64,000 nt of DNA from a virus (IMGVR_UViG_3300031993_006627:64001-128000), one strand, 5' to 3'; shown: positions 4,643-30,555, counted from the first letter of the stretch. The notes: a model not told the origin generated them from the letters alone. Made by a program: numbers and translations.

Positions 4643-6526
4643 ATGGCATTCCATCCTGACCCAGTTACGGGTTCTGCAGCATATTCGAGACTCAATCCTT
4701 TTAGGACGTGGTCAAATTTTGTCTACCCGCGTACCATCGACCAGGTGCTTATCTGGGCGCAGTGGTTCTGGGATCGCAACGCGAAATACCGCACGGTCAT
4801 CCAGAAGGTTATCTCGTATTTCGTCTCCGGCATCAATGTCACCCAGACGAATGAAAACGAGTCCTCCGATACGGACGCGGTGGCCGATGTCAAGGCAATG
4901 CTGATCGACCAGTACGACCTTCTGAATCTCACCAACAAGGTTGGCGTGGAGCTGGCGGCTCTGGGCAACGTGTTTGTCTCCTGTGAGAAACCGATCACCA
5001 GAATGCTCCTCTGCCCGACAGAGGGCTGCAACTGGATGATGGCTCTCAAGCAGTTGACCAAGAATGTCGAGTACAAATGGGACGGCAAGCATTTCACCGG
5101 TGTTTGCCCGAAGTGCCATAAGGAAGTCGTGTACAAGATCCATGACCAGGAGACCACGGATGCAGAAGGCCGCAAGGTGAAATTCATCTTCCGCGATCCA
5201 CAGGACATCCGCATCCAGTATAACCGGCTGACCGATACCTTCATGTATTACTACAAGATGCCGGATGACATCCGTAACGCCATTCTCCGTGGCGACCCTG
5301 TGTATCTGCTGAATACCCCGCAGGTGTTCCTGGAAGCGGCGCCGGAACAGGCACTCATCGAGTTCCGGGAAGAGGATTTCTTTGCCGCCAGAACCTACAC
5401 GCTGTCTTGCCTGGACAAGCGCTATAAGGGCTGGGGGCTTCCTCTTTTCATGCCCAGCTTCGACAACATGCTCCGGTTGCAGCATCTGGATAAATTCAAC
5501 GAAGCGATCACGCTGGATTACATCGCACCGACCCGTATCATCAGCCCACAGCCGCAGAACCTGCAGGCCGGCATGGGCGATCCGAACCGCGCACCTCTCA
5601 GCGGCAACGTCTTCCGGAGCTTCATCGAGAGCAGCCTGAAGCGTGTCAAGGAGAACCCGACCACCTGGATCGTTTCGCCGGTTCCCGTGCAGTACCAGCT
5701 GATGGGCGGCGAGGGCAAGGAACTCGCTCCCGTGGATCTCATGGAGTGGTACGTCACCCAGTTCAACTCCGATACCGGCATCCCGCAGGAATTCCGTCAA
5801 ACCACCTTCCAGGTGGTTGCTCCGTCCATGGGCATGCGCATGTTCGAACGCCAGTGGCGCCCGAATACCAAGCCGATGGACCGGTTTGTCCGCTGGGCTG
5901 GCCAGCATGTCTGCGACGTGGAAAAGGCTGAGAACATGCGTGTCACGCTGGATATCACCAGTTTCGTCGAAGACGACATGAACAAGCAGATGCGCTTCCA
6001 GCTGATGCAGGGCGGCGTGATCTCCAAGACCGAAACGCTGCGCAGTATCGGCATCGAGTTCGAGGACGACCTGAAGACCCGCATCGGAGAAATGAAGAAG
6101 GAACAGGAGCTCATGCAGAAGGAAGAGAAGGACCAGCAGGACCGCGAGATGGTTGGCTCGGTCATTCCTCCCACTGTTCTCAACGGTGTCAATCAGGCGC
6201 AGGGTGTTCTGGATGCCCAGATGGGTGTTCCACAGGATCCCAATGCACCGGCTGGTCCTGGTGCCCCGATGGCTCCTGCTGCACCGGCCCCGGCCAGCAA
6301 TCCGGATTCGGAGGGCGGCGGTGCCCCGATGGGCAGCGTCTGGCAGCAGGCGATGGACGAGGCGAACAGACTCTATACGCTGCCGCCTGAAGTACGTCGT
6401 CGTGAGCTGGTCAACATGAAAGCCAATAACCAGGAACTCCATGCGGCAGTTATCGAGATCATGAAGGACATGAAGCAGGACGTCGCATCGCAGGCCGTGG
6501 CCCAGAGCCAGCAGCCGCAACAGTAA
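4643..6526 (+). CDS. Putative portal protein with Zn-ribbon insertion
   Basis: First gene of the structural block, 627 aa; helical N-terminus, C-terminal GGVISKTETLRSIGIEFEDD segment typical of portal crowns, Pro/Ala-rich tail; CPTEGC...CPKC insert. Confidence 0.6.
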   Translation: MAFHPDPVTGSAAYSRLNPFRTWSNFVYPRTIDQVLIWAQWFWDRNAKYRTVIQKVISYFVSGINVTQTNENESSDTDAVADVKAMLIDQYDLLNLTNKVGVELAALGNVFVSCEKPITRMLLCPTEGCNWMMALKQLTKNVEYKWDGKHFTGVCPKCHKEVVYKIHDQETTDAEGRKVKFIFRDPQDIRIQYNRLTDTFMYYYKMPDDIRNAILRGDPVYLLNTPQVFLEAAPEQALIEFREEDFFAARTYTLSCLDKRYKGWGLPLFMPSFDNMLRLQHLDKFNEAITLDYIAPTRIISPQPQNLQAGMGDPNRAPLSGNVFRSFIESSLKRVKENPTTWIVSPVPVQYQLMGGEGKELAPVDLMEWYVTQFNSDTGIPQEFRQTTFQVVAPSMGMRMFERQWRPNTKPMDRFVRWAGQHVCDVEKAENMRVTLDITSFVEDDMNKQMRFQLMQGGVISKTETLRSIGIEFEDDLKTRIGEMKKEQELMQKEEKDQQDREMVGSVIPPTVLNGVNQAQGVLDAQMGVPQDPNAPAGPGAPMAPAAPAPASNPDSEGGGAPMGSVWQQAMDEANRLYTLPPEVRRRELVNMKANNQELHAAVIEIMKDMKQDVASQAVAQSQQPQQ

Positions 6527-6536
6527 GGAGAGCACC

Positions 6537-8600
6537 ATGACACTTGGCACGCTTATTAAGTTGGCGACAGAGCCGATTGAAATACCAGAAGGAGATCATT
6601 ACGGTCTTGGGAAAGTCCGGGATTTTTCCAATAAATATCTTGGCACGAATTTCACCTTTGGTGGGGATACCACGATTGATACCACACCCAGAGAACTGAT
6701 GCCAAAGAATGACCTTTCTGATGATTTAAGTCGCAGGCAGTCCCTTGTCAACGCATATCAACAGGGCCAGAACGACGCAAGCGACCGTTCCATTTTAGGT
6801 TTTGCCAAACCTTGGACAGAGCACCCCGATTATATTTCTGCCAAGCCGCCGACGGATCCGTGGTTGCGAGAACTGGATGAAGCGAAACGTCAGGGATACA
6901 ATGACAAGATGAAGGGCTACGCCATGAATGCCTCGGAGTATGCCGCTCGTCTGTCAAGAATCGCTCCATACGGTGTCCCACAGGTCGCAGATCGTCTGGC
7001 CGGCGCTATTACAAATGGAAAGATGGGTGTCACGGACTGGAACCAGACCAGGTCAGCCAACGATATTCAGAGAGAATATGCCAATGATGTAACTCGTACA
7101 CTTGATAATCCAGATACGCCACAGGGTCGGGACTATATCGCATTCAGGACGGGACTTACAGCGAATTCCCCGTGGACTGCCGGCATGAAAGACTGGGGCA
7201 GGGCGCACCCTGATAGCCCTATCGGCACAGTCGGAAATGCTCTGGGCCGTGTTGAGGATTTCGGGAACGAGCTGTTCAATAAGGGGAGTCTGATCAATGT
7301 CGGTCTCGCTGGTCCTGTAGGAAAAGCACTCACGTTCGGCAAGATGCGCCCAGGCATGCGCATCGCCGCAGAGGGCGCTGCTCTTGCTGCCCCGGACTGG
7401 GTGTATGCTGCAAGCCCGGAAGCTGCCATGTGGATCGGCAAACGGCCCATGCAGCAGGATGAGCGAGCAGCCCGGTTGACTTATGGTGATGCCATTGCCA
7501 ACCGCATGGCGAACGACAAGTATATGGGCTACTGGAGCGATGATAACGGTAATTACACGTTCAGTGGCTCGCAGATCAAGGATCCGGCGAAATTCGGTCA
7601 GGCTCTTGGTTATTTCCCGGACTACGGGCAGTATCTTCAGCAGCATGACATTGCGCCGGAACACTATGCCAATCAGAATGTACTGATGAACTATGTGATG
7701 AACCGTGTAGGCACCGGCACAGCCGGTACAGAGCTGTTCAACACACCGATGTTCCAGATGCTCGATCCGTCGAACAAGGCAAAGGCATTCGATACATGGC
7801 TGGAGAAACGCTATATCTCTGCGGAACGAAATGACAAGATTGGATGGAATTCTGCAGACAGCAAGGCGGTCAAACTGTCGAAAGCACTTGCCAGTGACTC
7901 GACTGGTGTTCTTCGCAATGGCATCCAGAATTTCTTCCGGTACGCAGATGCTCCGACGATTGCCAATTATCTTGGTAGCCATGCCGGTGGTGCTGGCGGT
8001 GGAACAGAAGGTGACATGGATGCTTTGTACGGCGTTTTGAAAGACAGTATCGTGATGAATATGCGGGAGAATCCCGGACATATCACACCGCTGGTTCAGG
8101 ACCTTGTGAAGCTGAAAGCATCCCAGGATCTGCTCGCAAAGAATGATCCCAATGCATCCATGAAGGGTGCCGAAGTCATCAAAGCGGCTTTCAAGGATGT
8201 CATGAAGGATCCGGAAGTGACTTCCCAGATGAGTGCAAGAGACAGAGAGGAATTCATCGCCGCTGTTGCACCTATCATGGAGACACCTGGTGGCGCTGAA
8301 CTTCTCGGAGGCGAGGCTGATGAAGCCGCTATGGCCGCTGTGCGTAATCTGCAGGGAGATGTTCTCGGTGCGGCTATAAGGCATCCGGATATCATACCGA
8401 AACTTGCCGGTTCCTGGACAGCGACTCATATTTCCCCGGAGGCTGGCAAATATGTCAGCAATCCATGGGTCTTCTGGAGCGTTCTGGCAACATTGGCGGC
8501 CGGCGGCGTGATTGCCGCGAGCAGTGTCTTCGACGATGATGAGGACGAGGACGACGAAGAACGCCAGTACAGAAAGGCAATCAGGCTTCTCAGTCGATGA
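6537..8600 (+). CDS. Putative internal head/ejected protein with C-terminal TM helix
   Basis: Leader MTLGTLIKLA; C-terminal PWVFWSVLATLAAGGVIAASSVF followed by an acidic tract. Confidence 0.55.
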   Translation: MTLGTLIKLATEPIEIPEGDHYGLGKVRDFSNKYLGTNFTFGGDTTIDTTPRELMPKNDLSDDLSRRQSLVNAYQQGQNDASDRSILGFAKPWTEHPDYISAKPPTDPWLRELDEAKRQGYNDKMKGYAMNASEYAARLSRIAPYGVPQVADRLAGAITNGKMGVTDWNQTRSANDIQREYANDVTRTLDNPDTPQGRDYIAFRTGLTANSPWTAGMKDWGRAHPDSPIGTVGNALGRVEDFGNELFNKGSLINVGLAGPVGKALTFGKMRPGMRIAAEGAALAAPDWVYAASPEAAMWIGKRPMQQDERAARLTYGDAIANRMANDKYMGYWSDDNGNYTFSGSQIKDPAKFGQALGYFPDYGQYLQQHDIAPEHYANQNVLMNYVMNRVGTGTAGTELFNTPMFQMLDPSNKAKAFDTWLEKRYISAERNDKIGWNSADSKAVKLSKALASDSTGVLRNGIQNFFRYADAPTIANYLGSHAGGAGGGTEGDMDALYGVLKDSIVMNMRENPGHITPLVQDLVKLKASQDLLAKNDPNASMKGAEVIKAAFKDVMKDPEVTSQMSARDREEFIAAVAPIMETPGGAELLGGEADEAAMAAVRNLQGDVLGAAIRHPDIIPKLAGSWTATHISPEAGKYVSNPWVFWSVLATLAAGGVIAASSVFDDDEDEDDEERQYRKAIRLLSR

Positions 8601-19001: not shown

Positions 19002-19051
19002 ATAGTAGAGAGTGATACGCGCCCGGTTACATAAGAGGAGACCATAACATG
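19001..19051 (+). repeat. Promoter/RBS leader, copy 1 (copy 2 at 20641-20688)
   Basis: Shared blocks TATAGTAGA, ACGCG, TACATAAGAGGAGA, AACATG. Confidence 0.75.
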
Positions 19052-20623
19052 AATATAGATCATATCAGACAAAGCATGCTGAAGCAAGCCGCTGACAAAG
19101 ATCATTCCAAATTATATAGGGATTCAGGCGATATACTTGAAGGCCCAACTGCATATATTCGTGGTGTGGGAGGAGCTGATGACAAATACAATGAAGAAGG
19201 CTGGGACAACTTTCAGAAGCAGACGGGTAACTGGCAGAGAATAGGTGCTACTCCTTACTCTTTTAGTCCTGATATAAATAAAAAGACCCCGGTTATCGAT
19301 TGGAAGCTGAGAACGCCAAAAGCAGGCGGCGGCACAACTGAATATAAAACAAGGACATTCCCAAATCAATCTATTAGTGCCAGAGTTGGCGCCTGGATGA
19401 TGAGTCCGTCTTTTCAATATCAACAACAGGCAGCAGGAGCTAATACAGCAGGATCAAATTCTGCACAAGGTGCGCAACAAAAACCAGGTCCTCTAAAAAT
19501 ATACACTGGCAGACCGGGTGAGCAACTGACGGAAGATATCATAAATGCCGCGAATGCTGGAAGAACACAATTTACTTTGCAGCCATTCACTAATGAGCAG
19601 CTAATGAGGATAATGACTCTTGATCCCAAGAATCGAAACTATATGAATGAGCTGTTGAGACATTACAGCCATATCCCATTAGAATCTTGGCATAAGGGAA
19701 ATCTGCAACTTGGCTCGCCAGAAGAGATCGAAGCATGGAAAAAGGATAAACCTCCTTTGGATAATAAAAATAACAACCAGAGTGGAACTTATTATTCAAC
19801 TCCTGGAACCATATCTTTGGATTCCACTGGTTTGTTCAACAGATATCTCGATGGATGGGGCAGTCAGGTTTATGATGGCAGATGGACTAATGCTTTATCC
19901 CAGGAAGCATATGCAGGGAATCTCATGACAAGCTCTCCTGTATTGGCAGGTCTGATAGGAGATACATATGGTCATGAGCTAGGGCACAGATATATGATGG
20001 GACAAACTAAAACCACCAAGGCAAACGGACCGATAAAACTAGAATATTCAAGGAAAGCCTTTAATCCTAAAAAGCCCGCGTCGTCTGACAATATTCCAGC
20101 TTTGATGAGCTCTGTGGACTTCAGGCCCCTTCCATTCGATGCACAGCAGTATGAGTGGCTGAAGAACAGAGCTATTCAAAGTTATGCTGTAAATGAGAAT
20201 GAAATGAATCAGGCGCTCACTAGCTTTAATCGTGGTCGATGGGCATTGAAGCAGGACATGATAAACAATCCGGATAATCCAAACTATAGGTATCTGGCGG
20301 AGAATTACCCTGGATTGATGGACAAGTTCAAGGCTCTGCCGGATTTCATTCCAGCCGGTAACGAAGGTATGAAACAGCTGGATAACGTGATGCAGCTTTT
20401 CATACAGAACCCTCAGTTGAAAGTTCTCATGCCGGAACAAGCGCGACTCGTCGGTTATTACCAGAATCTAAAGGCCGCTGTGGATAATGCGGATACTCCA
20501 CAGGAGAAGCAGTTTTTCCAGAACCTTATGAATCGTATGGTTTACAGCAAAGCGTTCCTGGCAAATAACCAGCAGAGCAAGCCTCATATCTCGTATGCTG
20601 ATGCCTATCGAGCGTATGCATAA
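19049..20623 (+). CDS. Putative capsid-delivered zincin-like metallopeptidase
   Basis: YGHELGHRY (HExxH) with downstream YAVNENE; leader MNIDHIRQSMLKQAA; AT-richer than neighbours. Confidence 0.55.
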   Translation: MNIDHIRQSMLKQAADKDHSKLYRDSGDILEGPTAYIRGVGGADDKYNEEGWDNFQKQTGNWQRIGATPYSFSPDINKKTPVIDWKLRTPKAGGGTTEYKTRTFPNQSISARVGAWMMSPSFQYQQQAAGANTAGSNSAQGAQQKPGPLKIYTGRPGEQLTEDIINAANAGRTQFTLQPFTNEQLMRIMTLDPKNRNYMNELLRHYSHIPLESWHKGNLQLGSPEEIEAWKKDKPPLDNKNNNQSGTYYSTPGTISLDSTGLFNRYLDGWGSQVYDGRWTNALSQEAYAGNLMTSSPVLAGLIGDTYGHELGHRYMMGQTKTTKANGPIKLEYSRKAFNPKKPASSDNIPALMSSVDFRPLPFDAQQYEWLKNRAIQSYAVNENEMNQALTSFNRGRWALKQDMINNPDNPNYRYLAENYPGLMDKFKALPDFIPAGNEGMKQLDNVMQLFIQNPQLKVLMPEQARLVGYYQNLKAAVDNADTPQEKQFFQNLMNRMVYSKAFLANNQQSKPHISYADAYRAYA

Positions 20624-20640: not shown

Positions 20641-20688
20641 TATAGTAGAACGAGACGCGAGGGCTACATAAGAGGAGATACGAACATG
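20641..20688 (+). repeat. Promoter/RBS leader, copy 2
   Basis: Same blocks as 19001-19051. Confidence 0.75.
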
Positions 20689-23600
20689 CCAGAAGAACCT
20701 GTTACACCGATACAAGCAGCGAAAACCACGATGTCCACGATCCGGCTGGTGCCGGACAAGCCGAAAAAGACTGCTGCAGATTGGGTAAGGGATATGCGCA
20801 TGTCTCCTGAGGTCAATAAAACGACCGTAGGAGTCGATACAGCGTCTGTTACCGGTGATCTCCTCCTGGCGACTTCCAATAAGCTCCTCGGTATTTCCCG
20901 GCGCAAACTGGAGCCGGATCCGAAGGATTCCCTGGAGTTCCAGCGTTTTTATGGGCCAGCGGAGTACTTCGCAGAACACGTCATGCGCGACGGTAATAAG
21001 CTCGGCCGCAATATCCTTTGGAAAGCAACGAACCAGGGCAATCTGGATTTTATGCCGGTTGCCGCGCTGGACAAGCATATTTCCGATGTCTACTACGACA
21101 GCAAGCTCGCCCAGATGATCGACGGTTCCTCTCCGCTGGAAACAGTGGATGCTTCCTATAAGACCACCCGCATCGGTGAAGGCGGTGTCGGCGACCTGGA
21201 TTCTGCACCGGAAGAGATGCGCACGGTGCAGCCGTCGTTCCTCGGTTTTATAGATTCAATAAGGTCGCCTGAGAGTTTCCGAGTCGGCCTTGATGTCTAT
21301 ATGACTAAGAATGTTATGAAGGGTTCCGACGGAAAGCTCTACCAGAAGTTCATCAATGCTCACACTGGCAAGGAAGAACTGGTGGATTCCGAGACTATTG
21401 CGAAATCCATAGTAACAACGCCGGAAATCATGAAGACAAAGACTAAATCAGTCTTTGCGGTTGGCGGCCCGACTGGTGTTCGCATCGTTCCGCGCAAGGA
21501 TGTGGATTACTATCTACCCAGAGCGGATGAGGCCTATAGCCTTTCCTCGAATATGGTCACGATGCCATCGGCTGTCATTGGCATGCGTCTGCTGATGGGC
21601 TGCCTGCACCCGGAGACCAATGTGTTTGTGGCCAATGAGCGCAACATGGTGTCTATGGTGAAAGCCAGATACCTGACCGGGAAAGATCAGCGGATACCCG
21701 GTATGAACAAGGAGTACAATTCCCTCTGCTACGGCCTGCGGAATACGATCACCAAGTGCGTTCCCCAGGCAAAGTGGTTCAAAAAGATCGTCTTGCGCTC
21801 CGGTCGCGTGATTATCACCAGTTATGACCATAAATGGCCGGTGCTGGTTAAGGATGAGATGACTCTGGTCCAGGCAAGAGATCTTCGGGCCGGCGACACG
21901 GTGTTCCGTACCACTTTCAAAGACGTGCCGAATCGCCGGACGTTCCTGAACAAACACATCATCACCAGGGACGTTGCGTTTGTCCTCGGTCTGATCTGCC
22001 GGTCGGTCTATACGAATCATCCGGGATCCGTGGGCTTTTGCTACCCGATTGCAACTGATTTGCGTGTAAAAGAGGCAATTCAATACGTCTATAGAGATCT
22101 CACTCCCAAGCAGTTCCATATCACGAAGAAAGACGGTTTCCGGTACATGACAATCAAATGCCAGGGGCTTTATGATTTCGTGAAGCAAAACATTGGTTTC
22201 AAACCAGAGGAACGCCGGATCCCGTCCGAAATCCTCAGCGGCTACGCAGATGTCGCTGCAGAGTTCATCAACGGTTATACCTCGGATGAGACGAAGGTCG
22301 GCATCGACTGCAACGAGGATATCTGGGTGCTGTTTATCCCGAATATGGATTTCCGGGATCAGCTGGCGTTCCTGTTTGCCCGTATGGGTACTGATACGCT
22401 GTACCGGGATGCCTCCCAGAATGGTGAACTGCAGATCGCTCTCAAGATCAATGACCAACCCAGAGTTTTCCATGATATGTACCAAGACACTGTGAAATAT
22501 GTCTGGGAAGGCCCGAAGTGTCCGATCATGGTGGACATCGACATCAATGACAACATGTATGCAGTTGCCAATGGCATCGTGACGCACAACTCGAAGTATC
22601 CTCTGCAGGCTGTCTCTCTGGAGCAACGCGAAGCTCCTCTGGTCCGTACACTGGACGAAGCCTCCGGAAAAGATATGGCGCAGATCGCCGGTAAGTTCCT
22701 CGGTGCCAGGTTTGCCCCGAAGGGTGGTATCGTCAGTGCAGTCCGCAAGGATAGAATCGATGTCATCTGGGATGATGGTTCGAAGGGTGCAGTTCCCCTC
22801 TATGTAAACTTCCCGATGAATGCCAAGGGCTACATCAATAATACGCCGGTGGTGAAGGCCGGCCAGTCGTTCAGTAAGGGTGACTGTCTCGCGGCCTCCA
22901 ATTACACAGACAAGACAGGCACTGCAGCACTCGGCATCAATCTCCGCACCGGTTGGATTTCCTGGAAGGGCGGTACCTACGAGGATGCCGTTGTGATCTC
23001 GGAAGAAGCGGCCAAGAAGCTCACCAGCACGACGATGTACAACACATCAGTTGATCTGGATAAGACTGTTTCCCTGGGCAAGCACAATTACATCACCTGG
23101 AAGCCGGCGGAGTACACCAAAGAACAGATGCAGCAGCTGGACGACAACGGAATTGTCAAGCCAGGCACGGTACTTCACAAGGGCGACCCGATGATCCTCG
23201 CCATCCGTACTAGCGAACCTTCACCTGGTACGATGGGAAAGCGTATCTTGACCGATCTTTCGGAGACCTGGGACCACGATCATGCTGGTGTTGTGACTGA
23301 TGTGGTCAAGACCCGCAAGGGTGTCAAGGTTTATACCACCGTGACTGCGCCGGCGGAAGTCGGGGACAAGATCGCCGGCCTGCATGGCAACAAGGGCACG
23401 ATTGCCCAGATCCTGCCGGCCGACCAGATGCCACAGACACAGAACGGTACACCGCTGGATATTTGCTTCAGCCCGCTGGGTATCACCAGCCGTAACAATA
23501 CGGCGCAGCTCTATGAAGCACTGCTGGCAAAGGTTGCCAAGAAGACCGGCAAGACACAGGTTGTCCCGGCGTTCTACGACGGGGATCTCTACGAGTACGT

Positions 23601-26600
23601 CCAGAGCAAGCTGAAAGAAGCTCGTGTACACGCAGATGAAGACTTGGTGGATCCGGAGACAGGCCGCACGATTCCGAATATCCTGACCGGCTACATCTAT
23701 ACACACAAGCTGAAACATCTGGCTGAATCCAAGATGTCGGCCCGTGGCACCGGCGAATACGCTGCGGATGAGACACCGGCTGGTTCTGGCGAGACAAAGG
23801 CGAAGCGTTTTGGGTCGCTCGAAATTGGCGCGATGGTGGGCCATTCTGCTTTCGAGAACCTGCGCGATGCAAAGCTGCTCAGGGGACAGTCAAATGCCGA
23901 CTTCTGGCGGTCTATCAGAACCGGCAACATCCCGACGATGCCGGGCGAGCCTCTCGTCCACAAGAAGTTTTTCGCCCATCTGATTGGCTCAGGCGTGAAT
24001 GTCCGGAAGAGTCAGCAAGGCGTGAGCGCGTTTGCTCTCTCCAGTGACGATGTGGAAGAACTTACCGGCCCCCGCGAGTTGAAGACCCGTGATACCTACG
24101 AAACACGTAATTTTCGACCCATCGACGGCGGTCTGTTCGGCCAGGACATCTTCGGCATCAATGGAGACAAGTGGGCATATATCAAACTCGACGAACCGGT
24201 TCCGAATCCTGTAATGGAAGAGCCTCTCGCCCGTTTGCTCCGAATGCCGGACAAGACATTCATTGGTGTTGCGACAGGCAAGACGGAGTACAACGGAATC
24301 CGTGGACCGCTGCAGCTGAAGGATGCGTTGGCAAACATCAATCTGGAAACCGAAGCCAAGAATGCTCTCCAGGAACTCAAGAATGCTCCAGTGTCCAAGA
24401 AGGATGCCGCGCTGAAGCGCTATGTCGCCATCGAACGCATGCGCCGGCTCGGTGTCAGCCCGGATAAGTATATGCTGGACAAGATCCCGGTACTGCCTCC
24501 GCAATATCGTCCGATCAGCACGCACAACGGTCTCACGATGGTTGCTGACAGCAATTATCTGTATGCCCAGCTGCTGGATGCAAGGGATGATGTCCGGGAA
24601 GCACGGGATCTACCAGAAGAATATCAGCAGCAGGCACGCGAGACGCTGTACAAAAACTGGAAAGAGCTGACCGGTCTGTACGAACCGGAGAACAAGGCGT
24701 TCAAAGCAAAACATATCCAGGGACTTCTGAAGTGGGCATTGGGTGACAGCCCGAAGTTCTCGGCCGCGCAGCGGAAGATCATCGGTATCGGTGTCGATAC
24801 TGTGGGCCGTGGTGTCATTACCCCGAACCCACGTATCAAGCTGAACCAGGTTGGTCTTCCGGAAGATATGGCGTTCGGTATCTTCTCACCACTGGTGGAA
24901 CGTGCTCTTGTGCAGCGCGGCTACACCCCGGTGGACGCCATCAAGCAGGTGCACGATAAAACGAACCAGGCTCGTGAGATTCTACTGAAGGTCATGGAAA
25001 CACACCCCGTGCTTATGAACCGTGCACCTACGCTGCACAAGCTGTCGATCATGGCGTTTAATCCGGTACTTGTCAGCGGTCATGCTCTGCAGATCAATCC
25101 GAGTATCGTTGTTCCATTCGGTGCTGACTTCGACGGCAACTGTGTTGATTACGACAGCGAGATTTTCTTGAAAATATCAAAGTCTCAACACAATATTTCC
25201 ACTGCTGATTTCGTTAATTGTGTATCAAACCACAAAAATAGAAAGGATACACAAGACATGAAAACAACAGCTGAATCCCTCGTAACCTACTGGAGCGACG
25301 CAGAGAATGACTATCTGGTGATGAAGATCGGGGATCTTCCCCGTCTCGGAAACCCCATGAAGGACAAGAACGGCGCCGATTGCTATCAGGTTCCTGAAGG
25401 TCTCGAAGTCCTTACATGCAATCCGTCTACTGGAACGGCTGAATGGCAGGCAATCAATATGCTGACAGTGGAAGAAGACTGTGATACTGTCAAGATGAAA
25501 TTGGGCGCGAGGGATGTGATTCTGTCTACAAACGAGTCCGTTGCCGTCTTCGACCATGGGACCGGGTTGCTGACTAAAGTTACCCCAGAGACCGCGTATG
25601 CCGAGAAAGCAATGATTCCTGTGTTCAAGCAGAATCCTCTTCCATTCGGGACATATGCAGAACGGGATCTTGGCTGGCTTTTCGGTGCTTTTATCTCGGA
25701 CGGCTGGATGACTGATCGTACTATTGGTTATTGCAAGCTGGAGAAGGCGAAGAGGGATGAGTTCGTATCTATCCTGCGCCGCTACCACGATAACTTCACG
25801 GTGTACCAATACGATGAGGATGGCAAAGCAAACAAGTGCAAACTCGGAAAGTCGGCTAAGATTCACATAAACAGTAAAACAGCTGTTGATTGGCTCAGCC
25901 AGTGGAAGTTTGTGGACGAGGAAGCCAAAGCAAAGAACCCAGATAAACGTACTGCGTTGTTCAAGCACGTTCCGGAACATTTGATTACTTATGGCAGTGA
26001 AGAGTTCCTTTGGGGGCTGTTCTGCGGTCTGATCGACGGGGATGGTAGTCTGGTTAAGAATATGTCCACGGGCAAACCTCGTTTTACCTGCAGATTTTCT
26101 ACCTCAAGTGTAAAATTGAAAGATGACATCTGTCAGCTCTGTTACAGGCTCGGTCTGCGCTACTCTGTGACCGAGATTCCTCCGCGCAACTTCTCGAATA
26201 CAGCGTATGTTGTATTTCCTTCTACGACAGATCTTTTCAGCAAGTTGGACAAGATTCAGCTGATTGGGGAAAGAGAAAAAGCCGTTTTGGAAGAGTGGAG
26301 ACAAAGTGAACCAAGTTTGGACAGGAACGACATTGTTCCTATAACAGAGTTCGAATGGGATTGCATAAAGTCCTATCCGGAAATCATGTCCGACAAAGGT
26401 TTGTACAGCGCAGCCAGTAAGTCCAGAAAGATAGGAAGACGTGCTTGTCGCGAAGTCCTGTATCGTCATCTGGATATATTGAAATGCGCTGCACCATCGT
26501 TACTGCGCAGAGTTCTTAATACAGACACAATATGGATGACCATCGACAGCTTGGATCCGACCGGTAAGCGTCAGGTGTTTGATCTTGAGGTACAGGACAC

Positions 26601-26910
26601 GAAGGTGTTCGCTGTTAACAACGGCATCATCATCTGGGACACGGTCAATATCCATGCTCCAGTCAGTGACAACGCTCGCGAGGAAGCCCGTCGTCGCATG
26701 TTCCCGGAGCGCAACCTGATAGCCATGAAGAATCGGCAGATCGCTTATAAGCCGGAAAAGGAATACACGCAAGGGCTTTATACCGCGAGTCGCATTAACG
26801 ACAAGTCCACAGTACGCCCCATCTTATTTAAGGATCTGGCTGAAGCTCGTGCGGCCTATCGTCAAGGTCTTATCAACATTGACGACCCCATTGACATCCA
26901 GACAATATAA
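20686..26910 (+). CDS. rpoBC: Phage RNA polymerase beta(C-terminal)-beta'(N-terminal) fusion with two inteins
   Basis: Beta motifs: Rif cluster LAQMIDGSSPL, YEDAVVISE, GDKIAGLHGNKG, PLGITSRNN, FGSLEIGA; beta' motifs: GGLFGQDIFG, IPVLPPQYRP, MNRAPTLHKLSIMAF, GADFDG. Confidence 0.93.
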   Translation: MPEEPVTPIQAAKTTMSTIRLVPDKPKKTAADWVRDMRMSPEVNKTTVGVDTASVTGDLLLATSNKLLGISRRKLEPDPKDSLEFQRFYGPAEYFAEHVMRDGNKLGRNILWKATNQGNLDFMPVAALDKHISDVYYDSKLAQMIDGSSPLETVDASYKTTRIGEGGVGDLDSAPEEMRTVQPSFLGFIDSIRSPESFRVGLDVYMTKNVMKGSDGKLYQKFINAHTGKEELVDSETIAKSIVTTPEIMKTKTKSVFAVGGPTGVRIVPRKDVDYYLPRADEAYSLSSNMVTMPSAVIGMRLLMGCLHPETNVFVANERNMVSMVKARYLTGKDQRIPGMNKEYNSLCYGLRNTITKCVPQAKWFKKIVLRSGRVIITSYDHKWPVLVKDEMTLVQARDLRAGDTVFRTTFKDVPNRRTFLNKHIITRDVAFVLGLICRSVYTNHPGSVGFCYPIATDLRVKEAIQYVYRDLTPKQFHITKKDGFRYMTIKCQGLYDFVKQNIGFKPEERRIPSEILSGYADVAAEFINGYTSDETKVGIDCNEDIWVLFIPNMDFRDQLAFLFARMGTDTLYRDASQNGELQIALKINDQPRVFHDMYQDTVKYVWEGPKCPIMVDIDINDNMYAVANGIVTHNSKYPLQAVSLEQREAPLVRTLDEASGKDMAQIAGKFLGARFAPKGGIVSAVRKDRIDVIWDDGSKGAVPLYVNFPMNAKGYINNTPVVKAGQSFSKGDCLAASNYTDKTGTAALGINLRTGWISWKGGTYEDAVVISEEAAKKLTSTTMYNTSVDLDKTVSLGKHNYITWKPAEYTKEQMQQLDDNGIVKPGTVLHKGDPMILAIRTSEPSPGTMGKRILTDLSETWDHDHAGVVTDVVKTRKGVKVYTTVTAPAEVGDKIAGLHGNKGTIAQILPADQMPQTQNGTPLDICFSPLGITSRNNTAQLYEALLAKVAKKTGKTQVVPAFYDGDLYEYVQSKLKEARVHADEDLVDPETGRTIPNILTGYIYTHKLKHLAESKMSARGTGEYAADETPAGSGETKAKRFGSLEIGAMVGHSAFENLRDAKLLRGQSNADFWRSIRTGNIPTMPGEPLVHKKFFAHLIGSGVNVRKSQQGVSAFALSSDDVEELTGPRELKTRDTYETRNFRPIDGGLFGQDIFGINGDKWAYIKLDEPVPNPVMEEPLARLLRMPDKTFIGVATGKTEYNGIRGPLQLKDALANINLETEAKNALQELKNAPVSKKDAALKRYVAIERMRRLGVSPDKYMLDKIPVLPPQYRPISTHNGLTMVADSNYLYAQLLDARDDVREARDLPEEYQQQARETLYKNWKELTGLYEPENKAFKAKHIQGLLKWALGDSPKFSAAQRKIIGIGVDTVGRGVITPNPRIKLNQVGLPEDMAFGIFSPLVERALVQRGYTPVDAIKQVHDKTNQAREILLKVMETHPVLMNRAPTLHKLSIMAFNPVLVSGHALQINPSIVVPFGADFDGNCVDYDSEIFLKISKSQHNISTADFVNCVSNHKNRKDTQDMKTTAESLVTYWSDAENDYLVMKIGDLPRLGNPMKDKNGADCYQVPEGLEVLTCNPSTGTAEWQAINMLTVEEDCDTVKMKLGARDVILSTNESVAVFDHGTGLLTKVTPETAYAEKAMIPVFKQNPLPFGTYAERDLGWLFGAFISDGWMTDRTIGYCKLEKAKRDEFVSILRRYHDNFTVYQYDEDGKANKCKLGKSAKIHINSKTAVDWLSQWKFVDEEAKAKNPDKRTALFKHVPEHLITYGSEEFLWGLFCGLIDGDGSLVKNMSTGKPRFTCRFSTSSVKLKDDICQLCYRLGLRYSVTEIPPRNFSNTAYVVFPSTTDLFSKLDKIQLIGEREKAVLEEWRQSEPSLDRNDIVPITEFEWDCIKSYPEIMSDKGLYSAASKSRKIGRRACREVLYRHLDILKCAAPSLLRRVLNTDTIWMTIDSLDPTGKRQVFDLEVQDTKVFAVNNGIIIWDTVNIHAPVSDNAREEARRRMFPERNLIAMKNRQIAYKPEKEYTQGLYTASRINDKSTVRPILFKDLAEARAAYRQGLINIDDPIDIQTI
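21601..22590 (+). mobile_element. Intein 1 (330 aa, degenerate LAGLIDADG domain) in the beta moiety
   Basis: RLLMG|CLHPET...ITSYDHKW...ANGIVTHN|SKYPLQAV; splicing restores a segment matching RpoB RALMGANMQRQAV. Confidence 0.9.
25141..26640 (+). mobile_element. Intein 2 (500 aa, LAGLIDADG) in the beta' catalytic motif, with non-canonical C-terminal Trp-Asp
   Basis: GADFDGN|CVDYDSE...LFGAFISDG...LFCGLIDGDG...VFDLEVQDTKVFAVNNGIIIWD|TVNIHAP. Confidence 0.85.
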
Positions 26911-26948
26911 CGTAAAGCAAACAACCAGATTCAAATATAGGAGTCAAC

Positions 26949-27926
26949 ATGAACTACTATCAAAGACAGCCGATGTGGCCGCTCAATAAACGCGCAGTTG
27001 CGATCCTCACACCCGAAGCGATGCAGGCAGCTATGCAGCCGCCCCCACAGGACCCCTCGATGATGGGTGGTGCTCCTATGGATCCTTCCATGACCGGCGG
27101 TCAACCTCCGATGGACCCCGCGATGGCCGGTGGCGCTCCAATGCCTCCTCCGCAGGGTGCTCCGATGGATCCCTCTATGATGGGCGGTCAGCCCCCGATG
27201 CCTCCGCAAGGTGCGCCGGCCGGTGGTCTTCCTCCTGAAGCATTGCAGGACCAGATGTTCCTGCAGTTCCTTGCCGAGGCTTTCGGCATCATGCTTGATC
27301 CTCGTTCCGGCCAGTTCTTCGATCAGAACGGTCAGCCGGTTCCTCCCGAACTTCTGGCTCAGGCTTTCCAAGCCTATATGCAGGCGATGCAGCAACTTCA
27401 GATGCAGGGAGGCGGTGCCCCGATGCCTCCGCAGGGTGCTCCGATGGATCCGGCCGCCATGGGTGGTGCGCCGATGCCGCCTCCTGGCGAGATGCCTCCG
27501 ATGGATCCCGGCATGGCCGGTGGTCAGCCCCCGATGGATCCTGCAATGGCCGGCGGCGATCCTGGTATGATGGCTCCTCCGCCGGAAGGTGGCGAGCAGC
27601 CAATGGATCCCATGATGGCGGATTTCGCCAGCATGATCGTCAGCGCCATGGAAGATACCGTCGTCACTCCTCTGAAAGAAGAACTGTCGAACCTCATGAA
27701 GCAGTTCAACGATCTGAAGGAAATGATGAAGACCATGCGGGACGACATGGGCACCATCCGTACTGATGTTGATGCCCAGGAATCCAGAGCGGATGAATCT
27801 TCCATGCTTCGTTCCCAGCTTGCTGAGGAACTCGAACCGACCGTTGAACCAGAGCCGGAAGCTCCGCAGGAAAAACAGGCAGCTCTCCGTCCACTGAACA
27901 TTCTTGACATTCTTGGGAGCAAGTAA
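26949..27926 (+). CDS. Pro/Met/Gly-repeat low-complexity virion protein
   Basis: Multiple PMDP(S/A)M(M/A/T)GG repeats; NKRA near the N-terminus and EKQAA near the C-terminus; C-terminal coiled coil. Confidence 0.7.
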   Translation: MNYYQRQPMWPLNKRAVAILTPEAMQAAMQPPPQDPSMMGGAPMDPSMTGGQPPMDPAMAGGAPMPPPQGAPMDPSMMGGQPPMPPQGAPAGGLPPEALQDQMFLQFLAEAFGIMLDPRSGQFFDQNGQPVPPELLAQAFQAYMQAMQQLQMQGGGAPMPPQGAPMDPAAMGGAPMPPPGEMPPMDPGMAGGQPPMDPAMAGGDPGMMAPPPEGGEQPMDPMMADFASMIVSAMEDTVVTPLKEELSNLMKQFNDLKEMMKTMRDDMGTIRTDVDAQESRADESSMLRSQLAEELEPTVEPEPEAPQEKQAALRPLNILDILGSK

Positions 27927-28698: not shown

Positions 28699-28707
28699 GG
28701 AGTGCAT

Positions 28708-30555
28708 ATGAGAACCACTCTGGGCAGAGAACTCATACGGCAGAAGCTGCCGGACAAATTCAAATCCTATGCGGATCAGGTGCTGGATAAAAAGAAGCTC
28801 ACGGAGCTGATGACAAACCTGGCTCAGTATGATCCGGACGCTTACGTCGACATCCTGCAGGACTTGAATAATCTCAGTCAGACCGTCGTGTCCCTCTATG
28901 GCAGGAACACGGCTTTACCATTTGAGGACATCAAGGTTTCCAAAGGGATCAAGAGCCTGAACGCCCAGCTTCGCGCTGTCGTGGATAATGTTCTGAACGA
29001 CGACCGGCTGACTTCCGAGCAGAAGGAAAAGAAGATCACCGATCTCTGCTACAAATATACCAAGAAGGTAGAGGATGCCGTTTTCGCGGACAATGACCGC
29101 CGGCGCACTGCCTTTGCTTCCCAGATCAATTCCGGTTCCCGTGGCAATAAGACCCAGCTGATGCAGATGCAGTTCGGCAACATGGGTATGAAAGACGCCC
29201 TGAACCGTGATATGCCTTATATGATGATCGACCCGTATGCTCTGGGTGCATCCCCGATGGGATATTGGGTCAGCGCATCCTCCGGCCGAAAAGGTTACTA
29301 CGACGTCCAGGCGGCAACCGGTCAGTCCGGTTATCTTGGCAAACGCGTGACAGCGGCCACCCATGATACCGTGATCTCTGAAGATGACTGCGGTACAACT
29401 GACACTGGTATCCCATATCCTGCGAACGATAGCAAGAACGTGGGTGCTGTGCTTCTTCGCCCCTGGCATAGTTATCCGGCTGGCACAGTCGTGACGGATA
29501 AGATGGTAGGCGAAGCCGATGAGGACGAGGAGATGATCCTGCGCAGCCCGATTACCTGCAAAAGCAAGACGGGTGTCTGTGCCAAGTGCAGCGGCCTCGG
29601 TGAGAATGGTAAGTTCCCTGGAATCGGCGAGTATGTTCCAATGAATGCTGCTCGTTCCTTCGTGGAAGTCATCACCCAGGCTGGGGTTGGAAGCAAACAT
29701 CGCGGGGGTGTTGGCGGACGCAAGGTCGAGGATCCGGAAGGCGAAGATCAGCCTACTGGTTTCCGAGCAGTGGAACGTATGTTCACGACGCCGAAGAATT
29801 TCCCCGGTGGCGCAGTGCTTGCTCCTGTGGACGGCATCGTGACAAACATCGCCAAGGCCGCCCAGGGTGGCAATTATATCACGGTTGGCAGCAAAACCGT
29901 GTATGCTTCTCCGGCTCGTACCGTGAAGGTCAAGGTCGGTGACAAGCTGACTGCCGGCGACATCCTGACGAATGGTGTCCCGAACCCTGCCGAGATCGTC
30001 TCGTACAAGGGTCTCGGAGAAGGTCGCCGGTATTTCACCAACAAGCTGAACCAGGTTCTCAATGACCAGGGCTGGGGAACTGACAGGCGCAACATCGAGT
30101 CCTTCTCCAGAGCGTTCTTGAACAAGGTCGAGATCACTGACCCGGACGGGTTTGGAAACTATCTCCCTGGAGATATCGTGGACTACAGCGGTATTGCCGC
30201 AGAGTGGGAGCCCCGCAAGGATTCCGTGACGACCAAGGCCGACAAGGCCATGAACATGTATCTTGAAAAACCAGTATTGTACTACAGCGTGGGAACACGG
30301 ATTACGCCCGAAGTGGCAAGCACGCTGAAGAAGTACAAATTCGACGACGTTGTCGTATCAGACAAGGAGCCTCCTTTCTCGGCCAAGTTCATGCGGCCGG
30401 CCGAAGCGCTGCAGCACAGCAAGTACTGGCTGCCTCGTTTCGCCGGCGAACGTCTGCGCGACAGCTTGTTCGATGCGGCACAGCAGGGAATCACTGATCC
30501 CTATGACTCACCAAGTTATGTAGACAAAATAGTGGCACAGCCATTCAAACCATAA
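28708..30555 (+). CDS. rpoC: Phage RNA polymerase beta' C-terminal fragment
   Basis: SGSRGN; bridge helix GRKGYYDVQAATGQSGYLGKRV; EDDCGT; LRSPITC..GVCAKC Zn site; trigger loop TQAGVGSKHRGG; AAGGAG SD before ATG 28708. Confidence 0.9.
   Translation: MRTTLGRELIRQKLPDKFKSYADQVLDKKKLTELMTNLAQYDPDAYVDILQDLNNLSQTVVSLYGRNTALPFEDIKVSKGIKSLNAQLRAVVDNVLNDDRLTSEQKEKKITDLCYKYTKKVEDAVFADNDRRRTAFASQINSGSRGNKTQLMQMQFGNMGMKDALNRDMPYMMIDPYALGASPMGYWVSASSGRKGYYDVQAATGQSGYLGKRVTAATHDTVISEDDCGTTDTGIPYPANDSKNVGAVLLRPWHSYPAGTVVTDKMVGEADEDEEMILRSPITCKSKTGVCAKCSGLGENGKFPGIGEYVPMNAARSFVEVITQAGVGSKHRGGVGGRKVEDPEGEDQPTGFRAVERMFTTPKNFPGGAVLAPVDGIVTNIAKAAQGGNYITVGSKTVYASPARTVKVKVGDKLTAGDILTNGVPNPAEIVSYKGLGEGRRYFTNKLNQVLNDQGWGTDRRNIESFSRAFLNKVEITDPDGFGNYLPGDIVDYSGIAAEWEPRKDSVTTKADKAMNMYLEKPVLYYSVGTRITPEVASTLKKYKFDDVVVSDKEPPFSAKFMRPAEALQHSKYWLPRFAGERLRDSLFDAAQQGITDPYDSPSYVDKIVAQPFKP

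Follow-up and report, generated by a model that had tools for sequence, protein, structure and literature searches.

An intein family of phage RNA polymerases accompanied by asparagine at the position of a catalytic aspartate

Introduction

How does an RNA polymerase work if the last residue of its Mg-binding motif DxDGD is encoded as asparagine, and if this asparagine directly precedes an intein? The third Asp of DxDGD is among the most conserved residues in biology. To our knowledge, it is universal in two-barrel polymerases, and we know of none that has Asn there. The question is raised by a stretch of viral DNA of 64,000 nucleotides (IMGVR_UViG_3300031993_006627, positions 64001-128000), hereafter the window, in which positions are counted from the first letter and the polymerase genes and inteins described below lie on the plus strand. 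It belongs to the 164-kb record of a rumen phage, obtained from bovine gut metagenome data, and the genome is 93% complete. It contains a gene for a fused RNA polymerase subunit with two inteins, the second of which (intein 2) is located immediately after the encoded sequence D-F-D-G-N. An original prediction, made from the sequence alone, had interpreted the Asn before intein 2 and the Asp at its end as a reciprocal swap, possibly linked with new splicing chemistry.

Either answer to the question would be new. The phage might have a two-barrel RNA polymerase that works with Asn in the Mg triad, or there might be a maturation process that re-creates an Asp that is not encoded. In the latter case, the post-translational editing of a catalytic residue would be tied to a selfish element, a form of addiction. 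Asn is encoded at this position only before an intein devoid of the canonical His residues, and it is this association that we analyze here.

An intein within the Mg-binding motif

The polymerase gene (20686..26910) is a single open frame of 2074 codons with both inteins inside. The exteins are matched by the Pfam families RNA_pol_Rpb2_6 (E-value 2.7e-57) and RNA_pol_Rpb1_2 (6.3e-20), and the open reading frame (ORF) can be assigned with confidence to a bacterial-type RNA polymerase fusion that joins the C-terminal part of beta with the N-terminal part of beta'. The catalytic Mg-binding motif (25126..25140; GAC TTC GAC GGC AAC) ends with the AAC codon at 25138-25140, the residue referred to as Asn(-1). 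It is followed by the 500-residue intein 2 (25141..26640), which begins with Cys1 (TGT, 25141..25143), the predicted N-terminal nucleophile, and ends with Trp-Asp (TGG GAC, 26635-26640). The C-extein resumes with T(+1)-V-N-I-H-A-P (26641..26661; ACG GTC AAT ATC CAT GCT CCA). The ORF sequence matches exactly the originally proposed reading DFDG-N/C...W-D/T (here and below, a slash marks the splice junction). The predicted ligated junction is ...GADFDG-X-TVNIHAPVSDNAR, where X is the residue at -1.

Pfam models matched the insert as LAGLIDADG_3 (E-value 1.2e-5) and, weakly, as Intein_splicing (20.3 bits, below the cut-off). The AlphaFold2 (AF2) model, based on a 43-sequence alignment, had a mean predicted local distance difference test (pLDDT) value of 88.6 and a predicted template modeling (pTM) score of 0.88. 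The best Foldseek matches of this model were the inteins TliVMA (7qss), PI-PfuI (1dq3), PI-TkoII (2cw7) and PI-SceI (1vde/1ef0), with E-values from 4e-20 to 1e-12; the endonucleases I-DmoI, I-OnuI and I-AniI were matched as well. A sequence search of the PDB with intein 2 produced no significant match. Judged by the model, intein 2 has a class 1 fold consisting of a Hint splicing domain and a nested double-motif LAGLIDADG homing endonuclease. The endonuclease is predicted from the fold and from two LAGLIDADG helices with acidic residues: motif 1 (LGWLFGAFISDGW; 25669..25707), including a conserved acidic residue, and motif 2 (LWGLFCGLIDGDGS; 26008..26049), both mapped by Pfam and the alignment. 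As had been claimed, there is a genuine intein within the Mg triad of the polymerase.

A family-wide association of Asn(-1) with the intein

Is this arrangement peculiar to a single phage? A HMMER search with the intein against 1.84 billion representative proteins gave 486 matches (139 at E<=1e-30). The family comprises about 100 clusters of metagenome proteins (50% identity level), the junctions of which, where present, read D-x-D-G-N/C and G-[LIV]-[IV]-[IV]-[W,Y,F]-D/[T,S]. In the alignment of 105 members, Asn(-1), Cys1 and Asn131 occur together in 100 sequences, while both the terminal Asp and the block F Asp481 are invariant (105/105). The +1 residue is either Thr (101) or Ser (4). The penultimate residue varies: Tyr in 59 members, Trp in 36, Phe in five and Gln, Arg, Met or Glu in the others. 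Such a junction pattern is far beyond what chance would produce in the sequences compared. Every member keeps an intact LAGLIDADG domain. The family, of which intein 2 represents the subclade labeled A1 (Cys1 in 100/100 A1 members), appears to be large, phage-specific and targeted to the point directly behind the codon for the third Asp in DxDGD of beta'. Apparently, it has been described nowhere so far: the literature searched contained no paper linking an intein with the polymerase DFDGD motif and none describing an obligate Asn(-1) or the A1 family. Among the approximately 120 listed matches to the pattern ADFDGN/C in 185,579 cellular species genomes, none had the beta' motif upstream. In the GenBank phage collection, neither the DNA of the region nor the intein protein had a match, and the nearest polymerases were about 31% identical. 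A search for related loci using the intein alone found none; the extein query did find relatives.

We then considered alleles without the intein. In the extein-seeded search, the sample of which includes many near-identical clusters, all 72 intein-less clusters (72/72) have Asp at the -1 position, in agreement with the proposal that the intein-less counterpart of the site is DFDGD. The following residue is free in these alleles (T, Q, A, M, N or C), whereas Thr or Ser occupies +1 in all 84 intein alleles from the extein-seeded set and in all 105 aligned ones. IMG/VR contained 18 exact DFDGD-T-x-N-x-H alleles and not a single intein-less DFDGN-T allele. The close relatives L002 and L003, both without intein 2, read DFDGD/T. 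Within 45 residues on either side of the site, the window protein differs from P0158 by the N/D replacement and one other residue, and the same gut samples hold both intein-bearing and intein-less alleles. The closest pair consists of P0210 (2091 residues, intein present, Asn) and P0184 (1592 residues, no intein, Asp), which differ at only 4 of 1592 extein positions, N/D being one of them. Therefore, the Asn codon travels together with the intein, and the enzyme has no change that would compensate for it. This near-isogenic natural pair also makes the Asn/Asp question directly testable.

Authenticity of the encoded Asn

The simplest way to dismiss the Asn codon would be to attribute it to a sequencing or assembly error, or to a decayed allele that no longer splices. 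We see practically no chance of this. The contig from the source sequencing run is identical to the window. Both junctions are also covered by an independent contig from goat gut (about 94.5% identical); among the differences listed, none affects AAC TGT at the N junction, and 28 of the 34 listed within the intein fall at third codon positions. Comparison of intein 2 with the 68%-related locus L004 gave pN 0.35 and pS 0.80 (nonsynonymous and synonymous differences, respectively). Because pN is below pS and the goat-gut changes are mostly at third positions, we consider intein 2 to be evolving under purifying selection. The intact frame, this selection and the recurrence of the same junctions in about 100 clusters and in independent samples refute both error and decay. 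The original argument against a single sequencing error is thus borne out in its conclusion. The same family-wide rule, DxDGN/C...[W,Y,F]D/T, rules out a decayed one-off among homologs that would all carry DFDGD/C...HN/T.

Sister inteins and the covarying partner of Asn(-1)

Inteins of at least three further types occupy the same boundary, which makes the insertion site a hot spot; all of them keep Asp(-1). Clade A2 (P0141, P0147 and P0149) has the junctions D/S-C ... Y-D/T. Family B (P0194-like sequences, L007 and L055) reads D/[S,T,C] ... V-V-Q-D/T. Family C reads D/[A,Q]-Q-I-G ... L-S-N/T, that is, it has no nucleophile at position 1 and has the canonical Asn end. Family C-type inteins P0241, P0252 and P0260 (about 670 residues), starting with Ala or Gln and ending with L-S-N/T, could be class 2 or class 3 inteins.

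The sister inteins make it possible to ask which residue changes together with Asn(-1). The terminal Asp does not, since it is also found in sister inteins that keep Asp(-1). Consequently, the predicted covariation of DFDGN/C with WD/T stands as a joint rule in about 100 clusters but fails as a coupling of the two residues, and the 'two reciprocal changes' are not a coupled swap. The idea that Asn(-1) and the terminal Asp exchange nitrogen is weakened for the same reason. The partner of Asn(-1) is instead found in block B (25525..25539 by the family alignment), which in intein 2 reads S-T-N-E-S (intein residues 129-133). Here Glu132 sits at the canonical block B His position, and Asn131 is invariant in A1. 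Inteins with Asn(-1) have block B of the form S-x-N-[E,D,A,P,Q]-S without His (E in 89, D in five, A in three, P in two and Q in one), whereas those with Asp(-1) have S-x-D-H-S with the canonical His. As judged from the alignment, this N-E versus D-H difference covaries perfectly with the residue at -1 and represents its true partner. In the tree of 117 inteins, all 16 Asp(-1)/D-H rows are on one side of one branch (99% support), and because of this the change between Asn(-1) and Asp(-1) is best regarded as a single evolutionary switch. It had seemed conceivable that Cys1 itself forces Asn(-1), because a thioester at Asp(-1) would self-cleave via an anhydride. This idea was rejected: in L043 and L055, both of them intact inteins inserted here, Asp(-1) directly precedes Cys1, and the block B His is present.

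Blocks F and G of intein 2 (26575..26640) read V-F-D481-L-E-V ... T-K488-V-F-A-V-N-N-G-I-I-I-W499-D500. According to the alignment with the canonical intein pattern and with intein 1 of the same gene, Lys would replace the block F His, Trp the penultimate His and Asp the terminal Asn. In A1 generally, Lys is found at the block F His position and Trp, Tyr or Phe at the penultimate one. On this assignment A1 is devoid of all three canonical histidines (block B, block F and penultimate).

A single transition would convert AAC to GAC, and yet reversion of Asn(-1) is seen in none of about 100 clusters; it follows that Asp(-1) is not tolerated by the A1 intein. The extein-seeded sample, with its near-identical clusters, includes 51 A1 rows versus 30 rows with Asp(-1) and terminal Asp and three ending with Asn. 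By these counts A1 appears at least as frequent as the sister inteins that leave a perfect DFDGD, and it is seemingly far more diverse.

Putative splicing route

Intein 2 is very likely a working mobile intein that splices by the class 1 route. This route, with the junctions given above, is supported because Cys1, Asp481, the terminal Asp and Thr/Ser(+1) are invariant while the penultimate residue is variable. Of the class 1 features, the Hint fold, Cys1 and the Thr+1 nucleophile position are present; the His of block B T-x-x-H and the C-terminal His-Asn are missing. Nor does intein 2 resemble class 3 (WCT) inteins, which lack the N-terminal nucleophile and have Cys at block F position 4: its Cys1 is invariant, and Asp481 occupies that block F position in 105/105 sequences. 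The chemical steps that we infer are as follows. Cys1 would form a thioester at Asn(-1), the side chain of which would stand in for the missing block B His. Thr+1 would then take over the N-extein, the terminal Asp would cyclize to an anhydride, thereby releasing the intein, and an O-to-N shift would yield ...DFDG-N-T.... The A1 intein would in this way depend on the extein Asn(-1), which homing carries along with the intein. With Cys1 and Thr/Ser(+1) invariant, canonical splicing is predicted to give DFDGN-T in the only beta' of the phage, just as originally proposed.

The original prediction also listed alternatives that would avoid this product. Formally, the DNA allele differs only by AAC...TGG inserted between the codons for Gly and Asp, so that excision of N-C...W, whether from the protein or as an RNA intron, would leave DFDG+DTVN. 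Such offset excision is extremely unlikely, as the penultimate residue varies while Asp, Cys1 and Thr+1 are invariant, and as the insert has 500 open codons, a Hint and LAGLIDADG fold and a record of purifying selection. The features of a group I intron are missing: no ribozyme core is matched (Rfam had no match at E<=1 for 24500-27300), the frame is continuous with both flanks, and the offset 5' 'exon' would end in C, not in U. In addition, a contig from a metatranscriptome library reads unspliced across the C junction, although DNA carry-over is possible in this case.

Cleavage without ligation is another alternative, and we consider it very unlikely. In this scenario, Asn(-1) would cyclize onto the thioester, and the resulting succinimide would open to an Asp-alpha-amide, leaving a polymerase that is nicked yet still assembled and has a proper Asp side chain. 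In favor of this, several genes already share the polymerase of these phages. C-terminal aminosuccinimides yield Asn or isoAsn when the ring opens, and the latter carries a CH2-COO- side chain; Asn, however, is expected to be the favored product. Thr/Ser(+1) is invariant in intein alleles and variable in their intein-less counterparts, as expected if this residue is a transesterification nucleophile and the exteins are ligated.

Comparison with known inteins

The class 1 route places intein 2 next to LAGLIDADG inteins such as TliVMA, PI-PfuI, PI-TkoII and PI-SceI. It shares with them the fold, Cys1, Thr/Ser(+1), the block F Asp, two LAGLIDADG motifs and insertion into a conserved active site. 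Unlike them, intein 2 has Glu at block B, Lys at block F, Trp/Tyr as the penultimate residue and no His at any of these positions. It also has a terminal Asp in place of Asn and an obligate Asn(-1) that replaces a catalytic Asp of the host.

The sisters A2, L043 and family B have in common with intein 2 the insertion point, fold family, terminal Asp, Thr+1 and LAGLIDADG endonuclease. In contrast to intein 2, they have block B S-x-D-H-S and Ser, Thr or Cys as residue 1, and their canonical splicing would produce DFDGD-T.

The terminal Asp as such has a precedent. Asp-ending inteins are a published variant, forming a small set of atypical inteins, at least as cited in PMC1635734 (Amitai, Dassa and Pietrokovski 2004, J Biol Chem 279:3121). 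Like these C-terminal Asp/Gln inteins, intein 2 has a terminal Asp (GAC, 26638-26640) before a nucleophilic +1 residue. The Asp end of these inteins is presumably resolved via a cyclic anhydride. For the Asp-ending inteins of 2004, reportedly neither a required extein residue nor an altered catalytic residue of the host is described.

Natural inteins without the block B His also exist, Tko CDC21-1 being an example. A parallel to the proposed role of Asn(-1) is the engineered Ssp DnaB M86 intein, in which a residue at the extein position -1 can take over from the block B His (PMC6333167). What these inteins share with intein 2 is that the block B His can be absent as long as the N-terminal scissile bond is activated by some other group. 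The difference is that the dependence of intein 2 is natural, Asn-specific, fixed in about 100 clusters and directed at a residue that the host needs as Asp. A1 would therefore represent natural inteins predicted to splice without the three canonical His residues and with an extein side chain as a co-factor, which is of interest for intein engineering.

Asn or Asp in the working enzyme

If splicing yields DFDGN, does the enzyme use Asn as such, or is it converted to Asp? Since the genome, 93% complete, has a single beta' catalytic domain (no second polymerase was found in it), the spliced protein must work. Since A1 is at least as frequent as the sisters leaving DFDGD, and far more diverse, it probably does so without a large extra cost. 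Finally, since Asp is universally conserved at this position, Asn is probably not equivalent to it. On the basis of this evolutionary reasoning we tentatively propose, at somewhat below an even chance, that Asn(-1) is hydrolyzed to Asp. In this further step, taking place during or soon after splicing, hydrolysis of the Asn amide would restore DFDGD, and the enzyme would then depend on passage through the intein.

Two forms of the conversion can be distinguished. That it follows splicing as a separate reaction is rather unlikely when taken on its own. That the intein itself makes the catalytic Asp out of Asn(-1) in the course of splicing is more doubtful still. In a candidate intein-coupled route, an acyl group would be transferred between the anhydride of the terminal Asp and the amide of Asn(-1); with the ensuing hydrolysis, the nitrogen would depart together with the intein. 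If so, splicing would 'write' an active-site residue that is not encoded, and the polymerase would be addicted to the selfish element, as exact removal of the intein DNA would leave it with DFDGN.

Several points weigh against conversion. The argument for it is evolutionary throughout, and we identified no simple intramolecular reaction with a precedent that would turn Asn(-1) into Asp. Routes via a succinimide yield Asn or isoAsn, and Asn-Thr is slow to deamidate in peptides. In 11% of A1, D, A, P or Q takes the place of Glu132, which hence is not a strictly required catalyst. The main hint of a nitrogen exchange is lost with the finding that the terminal Asp also occurs outside the Asn(-1) clade. 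A candidate helper gene just upstream of the polymerase (19049-20623) is missing from the A1-bearing L004 genome. In addition, homing drive could keep a moderately costly allele, and retention of the endonuclease by all members is expected of elements that persist by drive.

The last point leads to the other possible, if doubtful, explanation, namely, that Asn is kept. The route would be the same class 1 splicing, the polymerase would work with D-x-D-G-N, the carbonyl oxygen of Asn would bind Mg, and the cost would be offset by super-Mendelian homing of the intein, in which the neighboring codon is always co-converted. DFDGN is the product expected from known chemistry given the invariant Cys1 and Thr/Ser(+1). 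Asn adjoins the mobile element and so must hitch-hike during homing; the LAGLIDADG domain, intact in every member, fits persistence by drive. Intein-bearing and intein-less alleles are present in the same samples. Some right-hand RNA polymerases, too, naturally have Asn where a catalytic Asp would be, in a GDN motif. However, Asn is present in no intein-less allele, either in the 72 clusters or in IMG/VR, and, as far as we know, the third Asp is universal in two-barrel polymerases. Moreover, the beta' in question is the sole one in the genome, and A1 has not been displaced even though DFDGD-leaving sister inteins compete for the site.

The Asp might, in principle, also be introduced before translation. 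A-to-I editing at the first base of AAC would give a GAC-like codon, and this one A-to-G-like change would be enough. The RNA contigs found do not extend over position 25138. Editing is hardly conceivable nevertheless: the precursor would have Asp(-1), which A1 never encodes, and the local sequence CAACT differs from the TACG loop edited by bacterial TadA.

Neighboring genes and intein 1

A separate gene (28702..30555), identified by Pfam, codes for a C-terminal portion of beta' with Rpb1 domain 5 and thus for another piece of this split polymerase. The upstream gene at 19049-20623 (524 residues) has no Pfam match and is missing from five related phage genomes, the A1-bearing L004 genome among them; judging by this distribution, it is a strain-specific insertion. 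Its candidacy as a dedicated deamidase was rejected on the same two grounds.

Intein 1 (21601..22590), located in the beta part and matched by Pfam Intein_splicing, is canonical, with Cys1 at the start and T-H-N followed by Ser+1 at the end. Its junctions (LLMG/CLHPETN ... GIVTHN/SKYPLQ) served as an internal control. The relative L002 carries intein 1 without intein 2.

Other observations

A hypervariable low-confidence linker follows block A of intein 2 (25204..25282 by the AF2 model and the alignment). It includes an in-frame ATG (25258-25260; intein Met40), which is Met in 83 of 105 members and Leu or Val in 10 more. Many database ORFs begin near Met40, and this codon may be an internal start giving an endonuclease without block A.

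The L007 locus (5642-7380 of IMGVR_UViG_3300045988_176357) is TAG-recoded, all 57 in-frame stops in its polymerase gene being TAG (57/57). Its family B intein has TAG only in the first 60 or so codons and none in the next 530 or so, which suggests recent gain from a standard-code source or expression before recoding.

In eight contigs of sample 3300045988 (L030, L035, L040, L045, L047, L048, L050 and L057), the motif reads ADFDGD-C-Q-W-G-H-V-F, and stops appear a few residues further on, followed on the 3' side by long non-coding-looking sequence. Rfam gave no family match for L030 and L045. These contigs could have a split gene, an unrecognized intron or another genetic code right after the triad.

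Finally, P0104, P0109, P0119, P0124 and P0126 (about 460-500 residues) are free-standing homologs of the intein that end past the block G-like strand and have no extein junctions. They may be domesticated or free-living derivatives of the endonuclease.

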